IMG/VR virus record: IMGVR_UViG_2695420817_000008
Direction: 5' to 3' (one strand)
DNA length: 32,558 bases
Source of the DNA: a virus
Lineage: Duplodnaviria; Heunggongvirae; Uroviricota; Caudoviricetes
A program made the translations under genes and the position numbers. The notes beneath the pieces are model-generated. The model searched no databases, had not been told where the DNA came from, and was given only the letters and a program-made list of their open reading frames with translations. Of the stretch, positions 1,265 through 15,563 are shown piece after piece; positions within the stretch are counted from its first letter, which is position 1; each line of letters begins with the position of its first letter.

Positions 1265-1771
1265 TCATTTTAATCTATCAAGGAGTGGCTCTCTTTCCTT
1301 CTTCTCTGATTCTCTTCGGTTTAATAACGCTTTAAACTCTTGAAGCTCAACCATTATTTTATGAACGAATACACTGGTATAGAGAGAAATAAAGAGTAAT
1401 CCACCTGAAATTTTTAAGACCCTGAAGAGTAGGGCTTGATCATTTGTGCTTGCTATTAACCCCAAGATTACAAACAAAGTTGAAAATACATAGAAAGCTA
1501 ATAATAAAACCAATTTCAGTCTCTTGGATTTGACTATTGGCACTAATCGCCTAACCTCACTAGGGGTTAAAGACGAGTGGTCATTGGCCTCATTTGCCTT
1601 AAAAATGGCTTGTATACAATATGATAATGGCAATTGCATGAGTCCAACCACAGCCCACGGAGCTGTTAGGACAACACCCGGTGTAATATAGCCCAATGCT
1701 GACTTGAACAAAAAGTAACCAGCAACATAGAAGACCAACATACCAATAAGGTGGATGATGTTCGATTTCAT
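1265..1771 (-). CDS. small integral membrane protein (168 aa, four predicted TM helices); RexB-like or SieB-like exclusion candidate
   Basis: Hydrophobic segments IIHLIGMLVFYVAGYFLF, VVLTAPWAVVGLMQLPLSY, LKLVLLLAFYVFSTLFVILGLIA and GGLLFISLYTSVFV, with a charged C-terminal tail. AT-rich and co-oriented with the cI-like gene. Confidence 0.6.
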   Translation of the reverse strand: MKSNIIHLIGMLVFYVAGYFLFKSALGYITPGVVLTAPWAVVGLMQLPLSYCIQAIFKANEANDHSSLTPSEVRRLVPIVKSKRLKLVLLLAFYVFSTLFVILGLIASTNDQALLFRVLKISGGLLFISLYTSVFVHKIMVELQEFKALLNRRESEKKEREPLLDRLK

Positions 1772-1792
1772 TATCGCCCTCCTTTTGGTAGG

Positions 1793-2815
1793 TTATTTTG
1801 CAACCAATTCTCCGGCATCAAGTTTTGAGAACAGCCACTTATGCATTTTTAAGAATAAATCATTTTCATCAATAATGCCATTGTTATGTTCAACGCTAAT
1901 TTTTCCGGATAATTTTATCTCTTTTCCCGTTATTTCCCCACCGCCTTGAAGTTTGATGCTAATATCATCCTCATCTAGATGTCGTAGTGAGGTAGCAATA
2001 CTGTCTATAACAGCTTGACCGCTATCATTTGTTTTTCTGAAGTATGTAATCTCGAGGCTTACTTGTAAATTGGCCTCATCTAATGAATCTTTAATGTTTA
2101 TATCATTTGCCCAGTTATCGCCAAAAAATGCTTTTAGTAGCGCACCTCCTTTCCCTATTGGGCGGTATTTTATTGTCTTCACCGAACCATTTGAAAAGGA
2201 GGGTGTTTGGTTCTCTGAATTTTTAACTTCTGAAGTAATGGGTAATCCACCAATTTTTATGCTCTTGGCTGGTGCTTTCTCCATTTTTTTCATCGTTTCT
2301 TCGGATGGCTTATCTTGAAGCATTAACACAGATTCTTTTTCATCTGTGAATGTATTAATTAGCCAATTCAAATGCGCCTCAAGCTCCCTTGCTCGAAGCG
2401 ATGTGGATTGAACGATCATGACATGGTTGTTTAGTACACCAAAATATAAAATTGAATCTACAAACTCTCTTTTTTTGTCACTACGTTTATCTCCATCAAT
2501 AATTATATCATTAGACGTGATGGAGTTAATGTCATAAAATTTAACATTATCACTAAGCTCTAATAGAGACTGGCTTTTGTCTTTTTCAAATAAAACCAGT
2601 TGCCCAAAAAGTATAGTTTTGTATGTGTCGCTTTTATTTAAGAAACGATACCCCGAATTTTCATCTGAAGGTGTTATTTTTTCTTGTCTACTAAGTACTT
2701 TTTCTGCAACGCCGCCCTCACCTATAATACTAAGTAGTATGTTTTGTAATGATGATTTGCTGTGTGGGATTACTGCTTTTTTATAATGAACGACTTTTTG
2801 TCTGTTATCTTTCAT
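1793..2815 (-). CDS. hypothetical soluble protein (340 aa), RexA-position partner of the membrane protein; no recognisable catalytic motif
   Basis: Long AT-rich ORF immediately downstream of the cI-like gene on the same strand, 21 nt upstream of the membrane-protein gene. No Walker or nuclease motif seen. Confidence 0.6.
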   Translation of the reverse strand: MKDNRQKVVHYKKAVIPHSKSSLQNILLSIIGEGGVAEKVLSRQEKITPSDENSGYRFLNKSDTYKTILFGQLVLFEKDKSQSLLELSDNVKFYDINSITSNDIIIDGDKRSDKKREFVDSILYFGVLNNHVMIVQSTSLRARELEAHLNWLINTFTDEKESVLMLQDKPSEETMKKMEKAPAKSIKIGGLPITSEVKNSENQTPSFSNGSVKTIKYRPIGKGGALLKAFFGDNWANDINIKDSLDEANLQVSLEITYFRKTNDSGQAVIDSIATSLRHLDEDDISIKLQGGGEITGKEIKLSGKISVEHNNGIIDENDLFLKMHKWLFSKLDAGELVAK

Positions 2816-2873
2816 TGCTATAGTCCAACTAGTATTGAATAAATAAACACAGTAAAGACATAAAAATTTCTTA

Positions 2874-2937: not shown

Positions 2938-3630
2938 CTACCCATGCTTCCTGTAGGTCTGCGGCATGCTCCCAATAACTTTCCCGAAGATAAACACCCG
3001 GTTCATCTCGTCTTTCTCGATAGGATCCCACGGTGAGTAGCTCTTGTTATCAGAGATAACCAGCAGTTTATCCTTCATCATTTGCAGGCGCTTTACATGG
3101 GCGGTGTCGTCGTACAGAAATGCATAGATACCATCACCGTCGAAAGATTTAACCGTGATATCAACGAACAGCAGATCACCTGGTTCGATCGTTCCTGACA
3201 TGCTGTCACCACGCACGTTAATGATGCGGATATTTTCTGCCTTCCTGCCATCGAACATGTGACGAGCATCGTCAAACGAGTACTCAACCGAGCGTAGAAC
3301 TTCTACAAACTCACGGTTGATGACTCCCGGCCCGGCACTGACTTCTATATCAAGAACGTCAATTTTGAAGTATTTGGAATGGCTGACAGCAGGCTTCCCT
3401 GATTGTTGACCGTCATTTCTCATCGGGCCTATGCCTGATGAGAGCCATTCTGTTCGAACACCCAATGCATTAGCTATTTCAACAATTTTTGTTGAGCCGC
3501 GCGCGTTGCCGCTTGTCAGTCTCCAGATTGTGGGTTGAGCTACGCCAGACGCCTTTGCAAGAGCGCCTTGAGACATTCCAGATTGTTCCATCGCTAGGTT
3601 TAAGCGATCAGCAAGAGTTTCTTTTTTCAT
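2938..3630 (-). CDS. CI-like prophage repressor (N-terminal HTH, C-terminal LexA-like S24 peptidase domain)
   Basis: HTH segment QGALAKASGVAQPTIWRL, Ser nucleophile in VRGDSMSG and Lys in HVKRL. Start taken as the ATG at 3628-3630 (MKKETLADRL); the ORF is open to a TTG at 3666. Divergent from the cro-like gene. Confidence 0.8.
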   Translation of the reverse strand: MKKETLADRLNLAMEQSGMSQGALAKASGVAQPTIWRLTSGNARGSTKIVEIANALGVRTEWLSSGIGPMRNDGQQSGKPAVSHSKYFKIDVLDIEVSAGPGVINREFVEVLRSVEYSFDDARHMFDGRKAENIRIINVRGDSMSGTIEPGDLLFVDITVKSFDGDGIYAFLYDDTAHVKRLQMMKDKLLVISDNKSYSPWDPIEKDEMNRVFIFGKVIGSMPQTYRKHG

Positions 3631-3666
3631 AAGTTTTAATTTATACGCTTGCGTATTGATGGTCAA

Positions 3667-6384: not shown

Positions 6385-8031
6385 ATGTGTGAAACCTATA
6401 TTTTTAGGTTCCGTGACCTAGGAAAAAGTGAAGGATTTACCATCGAGCAACACAATAACATTGCTCGCCAAGAAGGGAATGTTTGGTGGGGGTGGTGGGC
6501 TAAATCTGGTGAGCGTTTCCCATCACTGGAACTAAAAAATGCGGCAGAAAAAAATAAACAAATATATTTTTTTGATTCAGGGCGGCTTAAATTTTATACC
6601 GCTGTATTAAAGGATACCTGCTCGTCAGCTTTAGGGGATATAAAAAAGCAATCTCCTAAGGATGGTCGCAGAACCCCAGCATATTATAATGAGAATGAGT
6701 TGCTGGGATGGTTAAATGTTTCTGAGATTATAGAAATTGATGCTTGTGATATCCTCAAAAAATTCACATATATTCCATTGGATGCATTGTTTGCAGGTAA
6801 TAAAGATTTAGATGAGCAACTTTTCAACAAAATTGTCTTTTCTTCAGCTGAATTAAAAAAACAAGATAGAACTATTTGGAAGATTAGACCTGCAAATGAT
6901 AAAGATTTACAGCATGAGTCATTAGCATCTCATTATGTTCCTTATAATTTCAGTCGGAAGTATAGCCAAAAAAAAGGGGAGTTTATAATTTGGCTTTCGG
7001 ATATTCATTTTGATGGCGGAAATGGGAAACATGCATTTCCGACACAAGATAATGATCAGCTAAAATGTTTATCCTCTCGAGTGGTGGAGTTGGCTGGAAA
7101 ATATAATAATGGGAGTAAATGTGCTGGGTTGGCTATTTCAGGTGATTTGACGTGGCAGTCACAGAAAGAGGGATTCGAGCAAGCTTTGAATTTTATCAAA
7201 GATGTTAGTTCTTCTCTTAGTCTGACAACGGATGATATAATTATTTGTCCTGGGAATCACGATGTAGGTCTGGTTTCTAAAGATGAGTACTTTAAAATCG
7301 TTGGTAAGCCTGTAACGGATAAACCATGGAAAATTCTGGCGGAAAACTACCATAGCGAAAGTAAACTTAATTATATAAAATTTTATCGAGATTTTTTTCA
7401 AAGGGAACCTGAAGAAAATTTATCACAAGGAAGGAAATTTTTACTAGGTGGCCATAAAGTTGTTGAAATAGCCGCATTGAACTCATGCGTATTACAACAA
7501 GTAAAAGATTCATTTTTGGGCATGGGATTTGTCGGTGAGCAACAACTCAGTGATGTTGCAAAATCTATGGGATGGATGAATGATAGCGGAGGAGATATAC
7601 TCAAAAAGAAAGGTGTTATAAGAATTGCTATGCTTCACCATCACCTAACTTCTATTAATGAAGTTGAAGATGCCTATCTTGATTCAAGATATAGTGTAAC
7701 ATTAGATGCAGAGCGATTATTACGTTGGGTAGTAAGGCATAAAGTTGATTATATTCTGCATGGTCATATGCACAGAAGTAGTTTTATTACAATAACAAAA
7801 AAACTATCTCCGTTAGAACCAGTGACGGATTCAAATCCTGAACATACATTCCAAATTGTTTCTTTGGGAAGTTCAGGAGTTGTTAGTTCGGAATTGCCAA
7901 GTCAGGATTGTGCTAACTATGCATGCGTACTGGATTTTTCTGGCGAAAAGCTAACTTTTAATTTTTTCAAGCTTGATAAACAGAGCGGAGAAAAAGTGGC
8001 GGCTACTTATATTGTTGAAGGTTTATTATGA
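6385..8031 (+). CDS. calcineurin-like metallophosphoesterase (548 aa) with an unassigned ~200-aa N-terminal domain
   Basis: All five metallophosphoesterase motifs in order: LSDIHFDG (D-x-H), ISGDLTW (GD), CPGNHD (GNH[DE]), MLHHHL (H) and LHGHMHR (GH-x-H). N-terminal region contains GNVWWGWWAK. AT-rich codon usage; GAGGA RBS. Confidence 0.8.
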   Translation: MCETYIFRFRDLGKSEGFTIEQHNNIARQEGNVWWGWWAKSGERFPSLELKNAAEKNKQIYFFDSGRLKFYTAVLKDTCSSALGDIKKQSPKDGRRTPAYYNENELLGWLNVSEIIEIDACDILKKFTYIPLDALFAGNKDLDEQLFNKIVFSSAELKKQDRTIWKIRPANDKDLQHESLASHYVPYNFSRKYSQKKGEFIIWLSDIHFDGGNGKHAFPTQDNDQLKCLSSRVVELAGKYNNGSKCAGLAISGDLTWQSQKEGFEQALNFIKDVSSSLSLTTDDIIICPGNHDVGLVSKDEYFKIVGKPVTDKPWKILAENYHSESKLNYIKFYRDFFQREPEENLSQGRKFLLGGHKVVEIAALNSCVLQQVKDSFLGMGFVGEQQLSDVAKSMGWMNDSGGDILKKKGVIRIAMLHHHLTSINEVEDAYLDSRYSVTLDAERLLRWVVRHKVDYILHGHMHRSSFITITKKLSPLEPVTDSNPEHTFQIVSLGSSGVVSSELPSQDCANYACVLDFSGEKLTFNFFKLDKQSGEKVAATYIVEGLL

Positions 8032-8864
8032 AATTACTTATTACTGATTTGGATAATACACTGTACGATTGGGTGAGTTTTTACTCCCAGTCATTTAGTG
8101 CCATGGCAGAGCAATTATCTAAGGATATTGATGTGCCTTTGGATACGCTCCTGTCAGAATATAAAACAATTCATCAGAAGTTTGGTAACTCAGAAAAACC
8201 ATTTGCTACTTTAGAGCTACCATCTGTGATATCTTACTTTGGAACTAATGATAAAACGATTTTGCAGGAAAAACTTACTAATGTTTTTCAGGCGTTTAGC
8301 ACAAAACGTAACCAGACATTAATGTTGTATCCTACTGTAAAAGAAACGCTGGAATTATTGAAGAAACGGGGGGTAAAAATTGTAGGGCATACTGAAGCTT
8401 TGGAGTTTAATTCTTTATATCGTCTGAATAAGCTTGGTATAATTGATTTTTTTGATCATCTTTATACATTAGAAGATATTCATAATATCCACCCGAATCC
8501 CAAAAATGCAAAAAAAATACCTGTGAAGGATGACTTTGTAATTAGATTGTCCTGCGCTGAGTCAAAGCCAAACCCTAAATTGCTTGAGCACATATGTTCT
8601 TTTGAAGGAGTTAGTGTTGAAGATGCGGTATACATTGGCGATTCTATAACTAAAGATATGTCCATGGCTAAAGCTGTGGGGGTTACTGCTGTTTGGGCTA
8701 ATTATGGGCGACAGTTTTCACCTGAATTGTGGAAAGTTTTAGTGAAAATCACACACTGGAAAGATGCAGATGTGGAGAGGGAGGAACAACTTAGAAAAGC
8801 ATTCTCCAATGTTAGACCTGATTATGTTGTTAATAGTTTTTCAGAGCTGCTGAATTTGAAATGA
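8028..8864 (+). CDS. HAD-superfamily phosphatase (278 aa), translationally coupled to the phosphoesterase gene
   Basis: HAD motif I LITDLDNTLYDW (DxD), a conserved Lys in ESKPNPK and motif IV YIGDSITKD. Its ATG overlaps the upstream TGA (ATGA). Confidence 0.8.
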   Translation: MKLLITDLDNTLYDWVSFYSQSFSAMAEQLSKDIDVPLDTLLSEYKTIHQKFGNSEKPFATLELPSVISYFGTNDKTILQEKLTNVFQAFSTKRNQTLMLYPTVKETLELLKKRGVKIVGHTEALEFNSLYRLNKLGIIDFFDHLYTLEDIHNIHPNPKNAKKIPVKDDFVIRLSCAESKPNPKLLEHICSFEGVSVEDAVYIGDSITKDMSMAKAVGVTAVWANYGRQFSPELWKVLVKITHWKDADVEREEQLRKAFSNVRPDYVVNSFSELLNLK

Positions 8865-9911: not shown

Positions 9912-10081
9912 TGGCTACACCGCTTATTCGTGTCATGAACGGGCACATTTACAGAGTACCAAATCGTCGTAAGCGTAAACCTGAGCTGAAGCCTTCCGAA
10001 ATACCAACACTGCTCGGATATACCGCCAGCCTGGTTGATAAAAAATGGTTGCGACTGGCAGCAAGGAGGAATCATGGCTGA
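9911..10081 (+). CDS. ninE: NinE-like small protein (56 aa)
   Basis: [56 protein letters not shown]. Start overlaps the ybcN stop; not in the supplied ORF track because it is under 60 aa. Confidence 0.65.
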
Positions 10082-10556
10082 TTTGAGAAAAGCAGCGCGT
10101 GGTCGGGAATGCCAGGTAAGAATCCCTGGCGTATGTAATGGCAACCCTGAAACGTCTGTACTGGCACATATCCGGCTGGCTGGATTGTGCGGCACCGGTA
10201 TTAAACCGCCAGACCTTATTGCCACCATTGCCTGTTCTGCCTGTCACGACGAAATCGACCGCCGCACGCACATCAGCGCAGAAGGGCAGGTATACCGTGA
10301 TAACGTCGCCCGAATCATTAAAGGCTCAATGCTGGATATCGGTCTGGCTATGCCTGTGAAAATCCGCATTGAGTGCCACATGCCGGATCGCCGTCGCCGT
10401 GACCTGGATAATCTGCAAAAAGCCGCTTTTGACGCACTCACTAAAGCAGGTTTCTGGCTGGATGATGCTCAGGTCGTTGATTACCGCGTTGTGAAGATGC
10501 CTGTTACCAAAGGTGGGAGGCTGGAACTGACCATCACTGAACTGGGGAATGAATGA
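10074..10556 (+). CDS. rusA: in-frame YbcO (DUF1364) N-terminal part fused to RusA Holliday-junction resolvase C-terminal part (160 aa chimera)
   Basis: After an AAGGAGG RBS: [66 protein letters not shown] (YbcO-like) runs directly into [94 protein letters not shown] (RusA residues ~27-120 as recalled). Confidence 0.7.
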
Positions 10557-10693
10557 TGTTTGAGTCTTATATGGCAGAGCGTCTTCGCCGCCGCTGGGTG
10601 CGCCTGCGCTTATATCGTTTTCCTGGTTCTGTTTTGACCGATTACCGGATACTGAAGAATTACGCCAAAACACTGAAAGGAGCTGCCGCATGA
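10553..10693 (+). CDS. ylcG: YlcG-like small protein (46 aa)
   Basis: [46 protein letters not shown]; ATGA overlaps with both the rusA stop and the Q start. Confidence 0.65.
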
Positions 10694-11379
10694 ATACCCA
10701 ATATTTACAGTATGTCCGCGAGCAACTCATTGTGGCTACCGCTGATTTGAGCGGAGCAACGAAAGGACAGCTTGAAGCCTGGCTGGAGCATGCACAATTT
10801 GATACTGGTAAATACAAACGAAAGAAGCTGCGCATTCTGGATGAGGTAACTGGCAGGATGATTACGCTGGATAATCCGCCGATTTCCGGTAAGCAGTCGT
10901 ACGCAAAAGGTTCATCCATTGCACTGGTAAGCCAGGTTGAGTTCTCAACCTCGTCATGGCGCCGCGCGGTTCTGTCTCTCGAAGAACATCAGAAAGCGTG
11001 GTTGCTGTGGAGTTACAGCGAAAGTGTTCGCTGGGAACATCAGGTCACCATAACGCAGTGGGCATGGAGCGAGTTTAAGACTCTGTTGGGTACCAGAAAA
11101 ATTGCAGGTAAGACACTGGAACGTTTGAAGAAGTTGATCTGGCTGGCGGCACAGGATGTGAAGAACGAGCTGGCAGGGCGTAAGACCTATGAATACCAGG
11201 AGCTGGCATCACTGGTGGGAGTGACATCAAAAAACTGGTCTGAGACATTTACTGAACGCTGGGTTGCAATGAAGCACATTTTTCTACAGCTTGATAGCGA
11301 AGCTTTATTGCTTGTAACGAGAACACGTTCAAAACAAAAGACGACATTTTCACAGCAAAGTATTGCAAAACTGGATTGA
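10690..11379 (+). CDS. late-gene antiterminator Q-like protein (229 aa)
   Basis: Called by position: last gene of the nin region, directly upstream of a pR'-like promoter and a 6S-RNA-like leader. It is not lambda Q by sequence. Confidence 0.55.
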   Translation: MNTQYLQYVREQLIVATADLSGATKGQLEAWLEHAQFDTGKYKRKKLRILDEVTGRMITLDNPPISGKQSYAKGSSIALVSQVEFSTSSWRRAVLSLEEHQKAWLLWSYSESVRWEHQVTITQWAWSEFKTLLGTRKIAGKTLERLKKLIWLAAQDVKNELAGRKTYEYQELASLVGVTSKNWSETFTERWVAMKHIFLQLDSEALLLVTRTRSKQKTTFSQQSIAKLD

Positions 11380-11452
11380 AAGGCATATATTCCGTGTAAA
11401 TCTGATATTTTGCCAATGTTGTATGTGCAACTGTTCGTAGGTGTCGTAAGGG

Positions 11453-11481
11453 TTGACTATCCAATTTCCAGGATATAGATT
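11453..11481 (+). promoter_or_regulatory. late promoter pR'-like (TTGACT, 17-bp spacer, TAGATT) with a lambda-like leader downstream
   Basis: Sigma-70 hexamers read directly. The downstream leader (CCGCCAAGTTGGTAACTTCGAC...GGGACTCCAACC...GAGAGGTC) resembles the lambda pR'/qut leader as recalled. Confidence 0.6.
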
Positions 11482-11600
11482 TTTCTGCAATAAAGGTTTT
11501 GGGAATGAAGGGGCGGCTCCCAAAAGATAACCGCCAAGTTGGTAACTTCGACTCGATAATTGGTCTGGGACTCCAACCGTGTCGGCTGAGAGGTCGACGT

Positions 11601-12404
11601 CTATTTCTTTTGGGGAAGTGGATACTTTAAGCTAACATTTTGAGTTTCTATATCTCGTGGCCCTCGAGTTTTATCATAAAAATACCAGATATTAAATTTT
11701 CTCTCAGTGTGCCATGTATCATATTGCAAATGATCCCAGCCTAAATATGAAGCAACATAGTTTGATACTCTTATTTTGGCTTCAGATGAAGCTTTTCCTT
11801 GATATGCGCACATAACCGCACCTAAGAAAAAATCGGCTAGCTGAATGTTTTCAGATGCTTTAGAGTCTTTTGTCACTACACTGCTGATTATCCCTTTACG
11901 ACCAAATTTTCTATTCAATATGTTATTGGCAATAACATTTAGTTCTTCATCGGCCTTTTTATAACGAGATGCGATAGGATCAACTTCAATCCTGAAGTAA
12001 CTGTCTCTTTCAGGGTGTGCAGAAATTACAGAGCTAATTTTTGTGGTAATGAGATTTGTGAAGTGCTTTCTCCTTGCCAGGTCATAATCCCCATTATGAA
12101 ATGTCTTGTTTACTATTGATTTTTCAACCACGATACAATGAAAAGCTAGCCAAGGAACTCTAAAGAATAAGTCGATCAGCTCAAGATAAAATTCAGAGTA
12201 TCTTTTTGAATGGGCTTTTTGCCATTTTATTTCTTCAAAAAAACCATGTTTGCTACGTAGTTCTCTGATTAGTTGACAGAAATCCCCACGGCGTTGGTAC
12301 TTCATCCACAGACTGCCAAAGCCGTAGAAACGTTGCCCATCAATGCCAGATTCATCGCAAGCAATATGCCAAATTAACTTACCAATGTTATCTTTTTCTG
12401 TCAT
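11601..12404 (-). CDS. hypothetical accessory protein (267 aa), possibly DUF3800-like; moron between Q and lysis genes
   Basis: AT-rich ORF antisense to late transcription, with N-terminal HIACDESG and C-terminal QLADFFLGAV motifs. Family assignment is from memory and tentative. Confidence 0.6.
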   Translation of the reverse strand: MTEKDNIGKLIWHIACDESGIDGQRFYGFGSLWMKYQRRGDFCQLIRELRSKHGFFEEIKWQKAHSKRYSEFYLELIDLFFRVPWLAFHCIVVEKSIVNKTFHNGDYDLARRKHFTNLITTKISSVISAHPERDSYFRIEVDPIASRYKKADEELNVIANNILNRKFGRKGIISSVVTKDSKASENIQLADFFLGAVMCAYQGKASSEAKIRVSNYVASYLGWDHLQYDTWHTERKFNIWYFYDKTRGPRDIETQNVSLKYPLPQKK

Positions 12405-12632
12405 CTGCTGGTAATGCTCTTAGTCCTTAAAGCATGGTATTTAACCACACATGTAACTCATTGATAAAGATCGTTTTATGCAAGTTGCATGGATCGGCTT
12501 TTGAAGGCCATTCGCTTAGTTATAAGATTTTTTAGTTATTTTGAGTTGACTGTTTATAACAATATTTCCCATGTAAGTTTTTAATCATTAGCGTCCCGGC
12601 CTTTCGTCGGCGGCGAAACATTGGCTATTCAT

Positions 12633-12938
12633 ATGCACGAAAAAGAGAGCCTTGCCGGAGCGTTCTGGCTCGTTTTGCTGATCATCGCAGGTTGGGGCGG
12701 TCTGGTCCGCTATCTGATAGATGTGAAGCAAAGTAAAGCAACGTGGAGCTGGATAAATGCTCTGGCTCAGATAGTGGTATCGGGATTCACCGGTGTTATT
12801 GGTGGCCTGATCAGTATCGAAAGTGGATTCAGTATTTACATGATTCTCGCGACAGCGGGGATTAGTGGTGCGATGGGCTCGGTTGCACTGACGTACTTCT
12901 GGGAACGACTGACAGGGGTGAAAAATGCAAAATCTTAA
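12633..12938 (+). CDS. holin (three predicted TM helices)
   Basis: Hydrophobic segments AFWLVLLIIAGWGGLV, ALAQIVVSGFTGVIGGLISI and IYMILATAGISGAMGSVALTYFW with a charged C-terminus. Overlaps the R start as S does in lambda. The ORF is open from a TTG at 12621; not lambda S by sequence. Confidence 0.6.
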   Translation: MHEKESLAGAFWLVLLIIAGWGGLVRYLIDVKQSKATWSWINALAQIVVSGFTGVIGGLISIESGFSIYMILATAGISGAMGSVALTYFWERLTGVKNAKS

Positions 12939-13401
12939 TCCTCAGCGTAAAGCTTTCCTCGATATGTTGGCGTGGTCAGAAGGAACGGATAACGTGCGAC
13001 AACCGACACGTAACCGCGGTTATGACGTTATTGTCGGTGGCGAACTCTTCACTGATTACTCCGATCACCCTCGAAAACTTGTCACGCTAAACCCGAAACT
13101 CAAATCAACAGCCGCAGGCCGTTATCAACTTCTTTCACGCTGGTGGGATGCTTACCGCAAGCAGTTAGGGCTGACAGACTTCTCTCCTAAAAGCCAGGAT
13201 GCTGTTGCATTGCAGCAGATTAAGGAGCGTGGTGCTTTACTAATGATTGATCGCGGTGACATCCGTCAGGCAATCGACTGTTGCAGCAATATCTGGGCTT
13301 CGTTACCCGGAGCAGGTTACGGTCAGTATGAACATAAAATCGGTGACCTGATTTCCCGATTTAAAGAGGCTGGTGGGGTGGTAAATGAAGTTGAGCTATA
13401 A
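12925..13401 (+). CDS. R: endolysin R (lambda-type lytic transglycosylase)
   Basis: NPQRKAFLDMLAWSEGTDN...GYDVIVGGELFTDYSDHPRKLVTLNPKLKST...RYQLLSRWWDAYRKQLGL matches lambda R as recalled. Confidence 0.92.
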   Translation: MQNLNPQRKAFLDMLAWSEGTDNVRQPTRNRGYDVIVGGELFTDYSDHPRKLVTLNPKLKSTAAGRYQLLSRWWDAYRKQLGLTDFSPKSQDAVALQQIKERGALLMIDRGDIRQAIDCCSNIWASLPGAGYGQYEHKIGDLISRFKEAGGVVNEVEL

Positions 13402-13919: not shown

Positions 13920-14237
13920 AGCAGTAAAGCGGACGGACCGTGGCAAGTGGCGCCAATGCAGCAGTCATGATGCTGCCCCGAATACCCAAAGTTGCGGGTA
14001 GCCAGTCTCAGGTAAAAAGCTGAGGGCGTACTGGTGAGGGGTAACGGGAAGAAGCGCACCGGTACTCCAGGCTGGTCGCCAGTCAGCTTCCGGTTAGTGG
14101 TGAGGGATTCACGAGATACCCCTGACACATGGCCTCAAGGGAATGAGCGCAGCTACTGCGAGAGTGTGGTTGGCATTCACTTAGTGCTTGCGATAATGCT
14201 TTTAGTTACAATCACTTCATCGATAAATGAGGTGAAG

Positions 14238-14777
14238 ATGAACGCAGATTATATAGCTTACGAATCATTGGTTGCCACTAGAAATACAGCAGAATGGGCT
14301 TTTTGGTCAATGGTAGGAACGTGGTTTTCAGGCATTGCAACCTTTATGGCAGTATGCCTGACTTTATATATTTCTAACCGTCGACCTCGACCGAAGTTAA
14401 GAGGAACAGTATCGCTTGGGGGCATCACAGGCCAAAATGTGAGCACGTTTGGAGTTACGATCAACATTGCAAATGTTGGCATTCAAACCGCAACTATAAC
14501 TTCAGTAACATGGACGTTCGGTACAAAAAACTCACTACTTCAGATTCTGGGGGGTGGGTTTGGTGACGATTTACCAAAAAAAATTGAGCATGGCGAATAT
14601 GCATTTTTCTTTATTCAAAATGATACTAATGGCGACTGGGCCAGAGATATGAAAAATAAGATATGGGAACAGGGCGGCAACGTTCGCAAATTAATGTTGC
14701 TTGTGCACCTTGCTACCGGCGATACGATGAAAATTAAGCCAGCCAAAAATGTAATAAAAATGATCGAAAAATCATAA
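14238..14777 (+). CDS. hypothetical membrane-anchored protein (179 aa, one N-terminal TM helix)
   Basis: GAGG RBS then ATG. TM segment WAFWSMVGTWFSGIATFMAVCLTLYI followed by a Gly/Thr-rich domain. AT-rich, lying between the spanin genes and cos. The ORF is open from a GTG at 14034 but the upstream part has different composition. Confidence 0.55.
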   Translation: MNADYIAYESLVATRNTAEWAFWSMVGTWFSGIATFMAVCLTLYISNRRPRPKLRGTVSLGGITGQNVSTFGVTINIANVGIQTATITSVTWTFGTKNSLLQILGGGFGDDLPKKIEHGEYAFFFIQNDTNGDWARDMKNKIWEQGGNVRKLMLLVHLATGDTMKIKPAKNVIKMIEKS

Positions 14778-14884
14778 CATCCACAGGTGCATCACCATAG
14801 ACAGCCTCCATTCTAATCTCACCATCACAGGATCTCGTAGAGTGTCTGTGATGGTGCTATATCCTGTAAAGTAAAGGGAGACCA

Positions 14885-15172
14885 ATGATGACATCTTTAA
14901 CCGTTGCGGTATTAGCTTTAATAGTTGCAATCTGGCATGAGATAAACCGATTTCCAGCAACCGGGAAGAGCTTACTGTCTTTACAGCAAGAAGTTAGGGA
15001 GCTGAGGGATGAAAATGAAAGATTAGCCTCTGAAGTAGATTCTTTAAAGGATGAGTTACTTGAAATTTCAAATCAGATAGATCGAATTAAAGACCCTGAA
15101 TATTATGCATTGCTTGATGCAGGAGATGGAGTGGGTCTTTATGAAATAGAAAAGTCAAGAGGTCAAATTTAA
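14885..15172 (+). CDS. hypothetical small membrane-anchored coiled-coil protein (95 aa)
   Basis: AGGGAG RBS; N-terminal TM segment LTVAVLALIVAIW; heptad-like charged region LQQEVRELRDENERLASEVDSLKDELLEISNQIDRIK; terminator immediately downstream. Confidence 0.55.
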   Translation: MMTSLTVAVLALIVAIWHEINRFPATGKSLLSLQQEVRELRDENERLASEVDSLKDELLEISNQIDRIKDPEYYALLDAGDGVGLYEIEKSRGQI

Positions 15173-15173
15173 T

Positions 15174-15199
15174 AACCGCCTTTTTGGCGGTTTATTATT
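15174..15199 (+). terminator. intrinsic terminator (AACCGCC-TTTTT-GGCGGTT followed by TATTATT)
   Basis: Stem-loop and T-rich tail read directly after the 95-aa ORF stop. Confidence 0.6.
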
Positions 15200-15236
15200 C
15201 CGTCATCATGGGCAGGCCCATCGTAACTGCAGTATC

Positions 15237-15563
15237 TTATATACACCAATGACATCTCTGGATGGTTGGCAGTCCTGTTAGTTGGCCTGCGGTGGACTCG
15301 GCCTCGTCAAGCGTAAGAACACATACTTTTTGGTATCGGCCAGTAGTAAAGCCGGCGTGATTTTTTGGGCTGATTAACGGGTTGATTGATTTGCATGAGG
15401 CTCGATGAATCCGCGTAAATCTGGCATCATTTTTTCTGCCTTTCCCGCTGGCCGACTTAAGCAGATTAATAACGAATCCATCGGAATGGGTTGCTAGCCA
15501 ACTCTTGTACATCGCTTCGCTATCAACATCCTGTATTTCACTGCTGAAAATAGTAATGCCCAT
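15237..15563 (-). CDS. hypothetical protein (108 aa)
   Basis: Only sizeable ORF between the terminator and cos. Cys residues in ASCKS, KVCVL and RCHWCI; no family recognised. Confidence 0.35.
   Translation of the reverse strand: MGITIFSSEIQDVDSEAMYKSWLATHSDGFVINLLKSASGKGRKNDARFTRIHRASCKSINPLISPKNHAGFTTGRYQKVCVLTLDEAESTAGQLTGLPTIQRCHWCI

Follow-up and report, generated by a model that had tools for sequence, protein, structure and literature searches.

We analysed a 32,558-nucleotide (nt) stretch of DNA, IMG/VR record IMGVR_UViG_2695420817_000008 (hereafter the window; all coordinates are counted from its first letter). The locus is a phage-82-type prophage of Escherichia coli with a cargo cassette between the antiterminator gene Q and the lysis genes. 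A prophage in E. coli FHI_NMBU_03 is 99.9% identical to the window, and RefSeq labels the cargo open reading frame (ORF) there as "DUF3800 domain-containing protein". As predicted from the sequence, the cassette comprises two convergent transcription units, each with its own conserved promoter: a gene for a DUF3800 protein of 267 amino acids (aa) on the minus strand and, on the plus strand, a gene for a structured small RNA related to the 6S RNA of phage lambda. The features of the locus are:

10690..11379, plus strand: antiterminator gene Q of the phage 82 type (Pfam PF06323, E=8e-95); context, outside the cassette
11363..11423, plus strand: late promoter pR'82 with the Q-loading leader (promoter scan, conservation in prophage Sp8, published features of 82 pR')
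11424..12587, no strand assigned: cargo cassette of 1,164 bp (comparison with Sp8)
11453..11481, plus strand: predicted sigma-70 promoter of the 6S-like RNA, TTGACT-17-TAGATT, inferred start ~11488 (promoter scan)
11492..11611, plus strand: lambda-6S-like structured small RNA (covariance model R1, 113.6 bits on the window)
11601..12404, minus strand: DUF3800 gene, 267 aa, ATG start (ORF list, Pfam; RefSeq WP_024223832.1)
12439..12467, minus strand: predicted promoter of the DUF3800 gene, -35 TTATCA at 12467-12462, TGn and -10 TTAAAT at 12444-12439
12621..13401, plus strand: LydA-type holin gene (12621..12938) together with a GH24 endolysin gene (PF16083, PHROG 785, RefSeq); context

Over its last 228 nt, Q shares 98.2% identity with the phage 82 Q record X92588. 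The late promoter pR'82 consists of TTGCAA (11363-11368), a 17-nt spacer and TATATT (11386-11391), with an inferred start site at 11398. Counted from this start, the window carries an extended -10-like pause element, TGaTATTTT, at +6 to +14, GCC at +15 to +17 and U at +25, all three in agreement with the published features of 82 pR' (PMC5001585); the +25/+26 pause falls on 11422/11423. The Sakai prophage Sp8 (L084 in our numbering of loci) has the same Q and holin genes, but its homology to the window ends at 11423 and restarts at 12588. The cassette thus begins directly after the Q82 loading pause. In place of the 1,164 bp, Sp8 carries 232 bp bearing two strong terminators, which bears out the use of the Q-to-lysis gap as a cargo site. 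Among the E. coli genomes with this Q 3' end, 44 of 1,166 extend beyond 11423; consistent with that number, 43 genomes have the full Q-to-lysozyme stretch, DUF3800 gene included.

An earlier note, made from the letters of this DNA, had described an antisense, AT-rich 267-aa ORF with DESG and QLAD motifs as cargo between a pR'-like promoter and the holin gene. The ORF is indeed intact, and the GC content is 0.35-0.39 over 11600..12650 as against 0.49-0.51 in Q and the lysis genes. Because the DUF3800 gene is convergent with Q and points away from the holin gene, late transcripts from pR' must cross ~1.2 kb that includes it in antisense, much as the note had stated; the holin and endolysin genes are reachable by late transcription solely via read-through of the cassette. 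The assignment of the promoter was wrong. A TTGACT-17-TAGATT site exists at 11453..11481, but it is not the Q-cognate pR', which lies at 11363..11391, and it serves the small RNA. A hairpin at 11654..11672 that had been offered as the equivalent of tR' has a 4-bp stem within conserved coding sequence and was missed by the terminator scan, so we do not retain it.

The hexamers of the predicted DUF3800 promoter, taken from the alignment, are separated by a 17-nt spacer, and the inferred start is at ~12432. A block of ~45 nt at -77 to -31 of the gene is common to the lambdoid and P2-type copies, and its flanks diverge. At the other end of the gene, the terminator scan found no site on the minus strand that separates the stop codon from the RNA gene, and DUF3800 transcripts would therefore enter the complement of the RNA.

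Membership of the 267-aa protein in DUF3800 is practically certain. The protein matched PF12686 with 42.6 bits (cut-off 21, E=1.3e-10) over residues 16-197, in line with the family association that the note had made. The HIACDESG motif occupies residues 13-20 and QLADFFLG residues 188-195, and they hold the N-terminal DESG (DxSG) and C-terminal QxxD signatures at 16-20 (CDESG) and 188-191 (QLAD). Residues D17, E18, S19, G20, Q188 and D191 were unchanged across 29-30 homologues; D142, D152, E153 and D180 were also invariant. The protein also matched PHROG 3732 (function unknown, E=1e-136) and the PADLOC candidate system PDC-M04A (PDLC04353, E=7.8e-35; PDLC04354, E=1.7e-15). The AlphaFold model (predicted local distance difference test, pLDDT, 90.5) had RNase H2/HII, RNase HIII and PIWI as its nearest folds. 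The modelled protein is RNase-H-like, of the RNase H2/PIWI kind, but differs from type 2 RNase H and PIWI in a conserved extra C-terminal region of ~70 residues. A PDB profile search returned a chance match only.

A search of 5.8 billion protein sequences gave 499 homologues; the best 120 of them were mostly ~260-290 aa long, with 53-100% identity. The hosts were Enterobacterales, Vibrio, Shewanella, Aeromonas and Sorangium, to which a genome scan added myxobacteria and acidobacteria. Published work places DUF3800 in type VII retrons, where it is described as an RNase-H-like domain (PMC7736814), and among the accessory genes of Cas12a2/a3 loci (PMC10910872, PMC12669027, bioRxiv 2026.01.16.699850). 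DUF3800 genes also accompany eleven unrelated structured RNA motifs of unknown function, which stand on either side of the gene in either orientation and several of which end in a terminator (PMC5737381).

The second unit of the cassette lies immediately beyond the DUF3800 stop codon, where a block of ~105 nt is 74-94% identical between copies, lambdoid and P2-type ones included, whereas the adjoining coding DNA is only ~68% identical between lambdoid and P2 copies. The earlier note had taken 11453..11600 for an ordinary phage leader. We found instead a conserved structured RNA gene with a promoter of its own, which is a homologue of the lambda 6S core and travels together with DUF3800. The predicted RNA is ~115-125 nt long (~11488..11611). 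A promoter-like hexamer pair precedes it in the copies listed, with conserved hexamers and divergent spacers, and the distance from the hexamers to the RNA is similar among the DUF3800-linked copies.

The RNA has an H-type pseudoknot (11497-11504 with 11518-11525) interlaced with helix P3 (GGCGG/CCGCC, 11512-11516 with 11531-11535). Helix P2 (11538-11542 with 11573-11577) encloses a variable hairpin, P2a (11550-11552 with 11563-11565), and is followed by P1, a helix of 7 bp, GUCGGCU/GGUCGAC (11581-11587 with 11592-11598). P1 is capped by a GNRA loop, GAGA in the window and GAGA, GUGA, GAAA or GGAA among the copies. The T-tract at 11600-11611 is the reverse complement of the last Lys codons of DUF3800 and its stop codon (11601-11603). 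The only plus-strand terminator-like site near the 3' end of the DUF3800 gene, 11579..11600 with the T-tract to 11611, is P1 itself.

The 21-nt core of the model was present in 73 IMG/VR viral contigs, and 55 distinct sequences resulted. In a pairing test on 54 distinct copies, 95.9% of cells paired, compared with 29-54% when the partners were slid; 13 pairs had changed in both partners, and the observed values were not reached in any of 500 shuffles. The pseudoknot occurs in seven different sequences and keeps its complementarity in all of them: UUUUGGGA/UCCCAAAA, UUUUGGGG/CCCCAAAA, GGUGAG/CUCACC, GUGAUUCAGG/CCUGAAUCAC, UAACAAG/CUUGUUA, ACACAAAG/CUUUGUGU and GGUAGUGAG/CUUACUACC. When the block was read on the gene strand, the internal non-Watson-Crick pairs were C.A in 43 cases and G.U in two, and the RNA is therefore encoded on the plus strand of the window. 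The same count ruled out an element in the 3' untranslated region (UTR) of the DUF3800 messenger, a reading on which RNAalifold had given invariant G-U pairs; the GNRA-capped P1, the promoter (in the copies listed) and the T-tract, all on the opposite strand, ruled it out as well. We hold with high confidence that this structured small RNA gene on the plus strand is real.

Rfam 15 contained no family matching the RNA at gathering or permissive thresholds, and its DUF3800-I to -XI motifs matched neither the window (searched to E=10) nor ten related loci (searched to E=1). ARAGORN detected no tRNA or tRNA remnant in 11500..11600. The RNA model found no match in the distant homologue loci of Vibrio, Shewanella, Alteromonas and Myxococcota, and a literature search returned nothing on the RNA sequence or on later work with DUF3800 RNAs. 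With the DUF3800-I to -XI systems (Weinberg et al. 2017, PMC5737381) the cassette shares the protein family, the DESG and QxxD motifs and the RNase-H-like fold, as well as a terminator-ended structured RNA encoded beside the gene and outside its 5' UTR. It differs in the RNA itself, which corresponds to no Rfam motif and also exists alone in many phages.

Covariance model R1 matched lambda positions 44609..44716 with 63.1 bits, inside the 6S RNA, and an intermediate variant of the RNA is 88% identical to lambda 44613..44713. The helices and the pseudoknot are shared with lambda, whose pseudoknot sequence is its own and complementary. The cassette RNA is very probably homologous to the core of lambda 6S RNA. 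Taking 44587 as the lambda 6S start site, an assumption consistent with the lambda sequence, the model match spans ~+23 to +130, the pseudoknot begins at ~+26 and P1 ends at ~+127. Lambda 6S RNA has been known since 1971 and has no known function (PMC7547250; bioRxiv 10.1101/2024.10.31.621285). Lysogens show bands of ~194 and ~121 nt (bioRxiv 10.1101/2024.10.31.621285), of which the shorter would fit an end near P1. We did not find an earlier description of this conserved fold in the literature searched, a search outside which older papers in subscription journals lay.

Lambda 6S is the 194-nt leader transcript from pR' to tR', and the cassette RNA resembles it in its place downstream of Q and in its direction. 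It is, however, not a transcript of the Q-cognate pR' with a Q-loading pause and an end at tR'. Its promoter stands ~15 nt from the pseudoknot, compared with ~25 nt between the start site and the pseudoknot in the lambda leader, and it lacks both the Q-loading leader and a separate tR'. Moreover, it lies downstream of a Q82 gene that has its own pR', and it is fused tail-to-tail with the DUF3800 gene.

The copies fall into two subfamilies. Those of the lambda late-leader type follow either lambda Q or a 207-aa protein that takes the Q position, have a leader of 25-35 nt between promoter and pseudoknot, and in no case (0/20) carry a DUF3800 gene; some have a separate strong terminator, and tRNA genes follow in several loci. 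In copies with the UUUGGG-type pseudoknot the promoter is only ~15 nt from the pseudoknot, and 63 of 72 abut a convergent DUF3800 gene, although many of the copies counted are near-identical, so that this figure is inflated and there were fewer independent events than it suggests. In one further copy the abutting DUF3800 gene is frameshifted, and the remainder look like recent swaps of DUF3800 for other small genes (L140 vs L120, L132 vs L155). In the initial set of genome, phage and E. coli loci, the DUF3800 gene ended at the RNA in all 17 loci that bore the RNA. The covariance model also recovered the RNA, in the same geometry, in Mannheimia phage PHL101, where the protein is 47% identical. 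DUF3800-linked RNAs occur downstream of three Q families, namely Q82 (the window), lambda-type (L009) and Q21-type (L012, L068), as well as in the P2 hotspot and the Mannheimia cI operon, and in all of them the stop codon abuts P1. Prophages of the Sp8 type lack the RNA, which in Q82 prophages was found only alongside DUF3800. The RNA and the gene thus move as a unit.

Other genes were seen beside the RNA. In L158, tRNA-Asn and tRNA-Thr genes (2668..2823) directly follow the RNA and precede the holin gene, and tRNA genes near the RNA in L105, L112, L113 and L141 recall those located after pR' in Stx phages. In the P2-like locus L097 (887..1213), and also in L123, L126, L128 and L147, a 108-aa zinc-finger protein of the Ogr/Delta type (PF04606) abuts the RNA tail-to-tail and replaces DUF3800. 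In Xenorhabdus hominickii, a gene (L013 6195..7070) that encodes a Tad2-like domain (Thoeris anti-defence 2) separates the Q21-type gene from the RNA.

The DUF3800 gene was present in 95 of 5,426 complete E. coli genomes. Fifty-seven copies were >95% identical, and the examined ones adjoin a phage holin gene, either in the Q-to-holin gap or in a remnant cut by IS1; the other 38 were ~68% identical in DNA, and the two examined lie in P2-like prophages. The P2-type copy (~64% identical) is placed between replication/partition genes and portal/cos, as also in phage Chuche; P2-type phages have cos beside the portal gene. In Mannheimia P2-like phages, a 47%-identical copy closes the cI operon. In Rac-like prophage remnants beside trkG (L004 and L005, E. 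coli YY76-1 and M159-1), IS1 has cut the gene and removed the C-terminal part together with the RNA gene and everything upstream. The slot beside the DUF3800 and RNA pair in P2-like prophages carries differing genes of known or candidate defence systems, namely bSEFIR (E=7e-101), retron RT-Toprim I-C (E=2e-177) or PDC-S49 (L017 3026..4465, L058 2778..4563, L016 2964..4646), the retron RT-Toprim gene of L058 being split or frameshifted. In marine homologue loci the DUF3800 gene is flanked by direct repeats. The repeats recorded in L019, L024, L027 and L073 (Colwellia, Psychromonas, Vibrio, Polyangia) measure 106-267 nt with 78-98% identity and are as expected of integron cassettes bounded by attC. 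Such a distribution is typical of accessory or defence genes that are mobile.

A comparison of neighbourhoods across prophages, which the earlier note had proposed, yielded the cassette borders against Sp8 and the linked RNA gene, but no conserved protein partner: neighbour clustering of 77 DUF3800 loci found none, and the largest cluster covered six of the 77. Two proteins were tried as a second component and rejected. The small upstream ORF (88 aa in Chuche) is a spurious frame over a non-coding stretch next to the portal gene, and PHL101 ORF32 is an unrelated secreted protein. The cassette resembles the morons of prophage hotspots (the lambdoid Q-to-S gap, as with stx, and the P2 old/tin site) in its AT-richness, its own promoter, its insertion directly behind the pause site of the late promoter and the homologues that stand beside bSEFIR and a retron in the P2 hotspot. 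It differs from them in combining a protein gene with a structured RNA gene.

We lean towards reading the cassette as a lysogen-expressed, RNA-associated nuclease module for phage-phage conflict, a candidate for defence in which the RNA would be a dedicated partner or regulator. Taken separately, a functional coupling of the RNA and DUF3800 seems reasonably probable, a role in phage-phage conflict stands at about an even chance, and any specific molecular mechanism is doubtful. The defence role is suggested only by context, that is, the P2 hotspot, the Q-to-S cargo site and the integron-like cassettes, and by the PADLOC candidate model. In the mechanism that we propose, the first part would be the DUF3800 protein, in which the acidic residues D17, E18, D142 and D191 are invariant; its expression in the lysogen is presumed because the gene has its own conserved sigma-70 promoter. 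The second part would be the convergent RNA of ~115-125 nt, transcribed from a constitutive-type promoter, with the pseudoknot, two hairpins and an end that overlaps the DUF3800 stop codon. Both units would be on in the lysogen, where the RNA might bind the nuclease or pair with the unterminated 3' end of the DUF3800 mRNA, and P1 with the T-tract would stop the strong RNA promoter from reading into the DUF3800 gene. Upon induction, Q82-modified polymerase coming from 11398 would run through the RNA terminator towards the holin gene and copy the DUF3800 gene in antisense, which would silence the nuclease during the phage's own lytic growth. Such a switch, with the gene on in the lysogen and antisense-silenced on induction, is predicted because the insertion point of the cassette falls exactly behind the Q82 pause site.

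Several observations weigh against this reading. The strongest counter-evidence to coupling is that each partner also occurs without the other, the protein subfamily in marine cassette-like loci and the RNA in lambda itself. The RNA is not a strict requirement of the protein, as it is missing from marine and myxobacterial loci of the same subfamily; conversely, lambda and other phages that have the RNA but no DUF3800 imply that the RNA does something in its own right. Recombination within the conserved RNA sequence could explain part of the linkage. Some DUF3800-linked copies have no T-tract after P1, so that P1 does not act as a terminator in every case. Regarding the protein, no sequence-level similarity to RNase HII/RnhB was found (hhalign probability 0.2%), and PDC-M04 is a mere candidate listed as multi-gene, whose second protein component was not found among the scanned ORFs; PDC-M04B matched none of the 19 neighbouring and related ORFs. 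The "M" presumably signifies a multi-gene candidate system, and our literature search found no paper that mentions PDC-M04.

An alternative that we consider unlikely is that the RNA is an autonomous phage small RNA whose function has nothing to do with DUF3800, and DUF3800 an independent moron; the two would be neighbours because cargo enters directly behind late-leader RNAs and because the conserved RNA sequence provides a recombination handle by which adjoining cargo passes from phage to phage. Such hitch-hiking would account for the protein without RNA in the marine loci, for the RNA without DUF3800 in lambda, in phages with the 207-aa Q-position protein and in P2-like phages, and for the other convergent genes that abut the RNA (the Ogr/Delta-like gene and ORFs of 104 and 123 aa). 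It accounts poorly for the stop codon abutting P1 alike in the lambdoid, P2-hotspot and Mannheimia cI-operon contexts, down to 47% identity, and for Q82 prophages, which natively lack the RNA and acquire it solely with DUF3800. That the DUF3800-linked RNAs form a separate subfamily with a shortened leader, and that structured RNAs accompany DUF3800 genes in general, also argue against it. The layout of the earlier note, with 11453..11600 as late promoter, leader and tR' beside an unrelated moron, is very improbable, as is a part for DUF3800 in the lytic cycle (leader processing or primer removal). Both draw on the homology of the RNA to the lambda late leader, its position downstream of Q and the terminator-like P1 and T-tract; RNase H-type enzymes are, in addition, able to process primers. 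Nevertheless, the Q82-cognate promoter and pause lie 90 bp upstream and agree with the published 82 pR', and with only ~15 nt from the RNA promoter to the pseudoknot a Q-loading pause would not fit in between. Late transcription crosses the gene in antisense, which implies its lowest expression in lytic growth, and both parts are absent from most Q82 prophages.

Less probable than hitch-hiking, though not as remote as a lytic role, is abortive infection of the toxin-antitoxin type. A toxic nuclease would be restrained by the abundant RNA, through antisense pairing with the unterminated 3' end of the DUF3800 mRNA (type I-like) or protein binding (type III-like); shut-off of host transcription by an infecting phage would let the RNA decay and free the nuclease, and lambda-type 6S RNAs would be antidote mimics of phages. 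The convergent, overlapping 3' ends that no minus-strand terminator separates, the consensus-like RNA promoter next to a weaker gene promoter, and the location of the pair in prophages and defence hotspots fit this idea. The ToxI antitoxin RNA is pseudoknotted, as is the cassette RNA. With the type I pairs txpA/RatA and bsrG/SR4 the cassette shares its prophage setting and a convergent small RNA gene that overlaps a protein gene at the 3' ends. However, its protein is a predicted soluble RNase-H-like enzyme of 267 aa and not a small membrane toxin, and its RNA has a conserved pseudoknot, needless for pure antisense action. ToxIN-like type III systems require tandem antitoxin repeats upstream of a toxin of the ToxN/AbiQ fold in one operon, whereas the cassette RNA is single-copy and convergent and the protein, with its RNase H fold, is not ToxN-like. 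Close homologues lacking any such RNA argue against intrinsic toxicity. The IS1-truncated copies, which lost the C-terminus and the RNA jointly, are uninformative on this point either way.

As one elaboration of the nuclease-module reading, which we regard as speculative and quite unlikely, lambda-6S-type RNAs would be the natural ligands of this DUF3800 lineage: the RNA copy in the cassette would serve to programme the enzyme or hold it back, and the 6S RNAs of incoming phages would act as triggers or as neutralising decoys. If true, 6S RNA, made at once from the constitutive pR' of incoming lambdoid phages, would form an RNA-recognition axis between phages; lambda 6S RNA would gain its first function, and the pairing of DUF3800 with a dozen unrelated structured RNAs across bacteria would be explained.

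The DUF3800 gene alone is ordinary and already annotated in RefSeq, and the novelty appears to lie in its surroundings. The core of lambda 6S RNA is part of a well-supported pseudoknotted family in lambdoid, P2-like and Mannheimia phages that is absent from Rfam 15, which appears to be new. The tight genetic linkage of one branch of this RNA to a DUF3800 gene of the RNase-H-like kind, from a family with unexplained structured-RNA partnerships, also appears new, as does the position of the cassette after the Q82 pause, with its simple prediction of an on/off switch. The function of lambda 6S RNA and that of the DUF3800-associated RNAs now each have a concrete partner for a test.

Further observations concern other parts of the window. 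In the nin region, between replication gene P and ninB/ybcN (6385..8864, plus strand), two overlapping AT-rich genes encode a 548-aa protein with PUA-like and calcineurin-type metallophosphoesterase domains (PF24405, PF00149) and a 278-aa HAD hydrolase that matched the PADLOC "Hydrolase" model PDLC03008 (E=4e-57); the pair looks like a second, two-gene cargo of the defence type. Directly downstream of the cI-like repressor gene (2938..3666), hypothetical genes of 168 and 340 aa (1265..2815, minus strand) fill the slot that rexAB holds in lambda, and neither matched Pfam or PADLOC. The interval from Rz/Rz1 to the small terminase subunit (14034..15563) contains unassigned ORFs at 14034/14239..14777 (plus strand) and 15237..15563 (minus strand) and a 95-aa coiled-coil ORF at 14885..15172 (plus strand), with only weak PHROG matches. 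Finally, ybcO and rusA appear in the ORF list as a single 173-aa frame with both Pfam domains (10035..10556, plus strand), whereas RefSeq gives two overlapping genes in the near-identical prophage.

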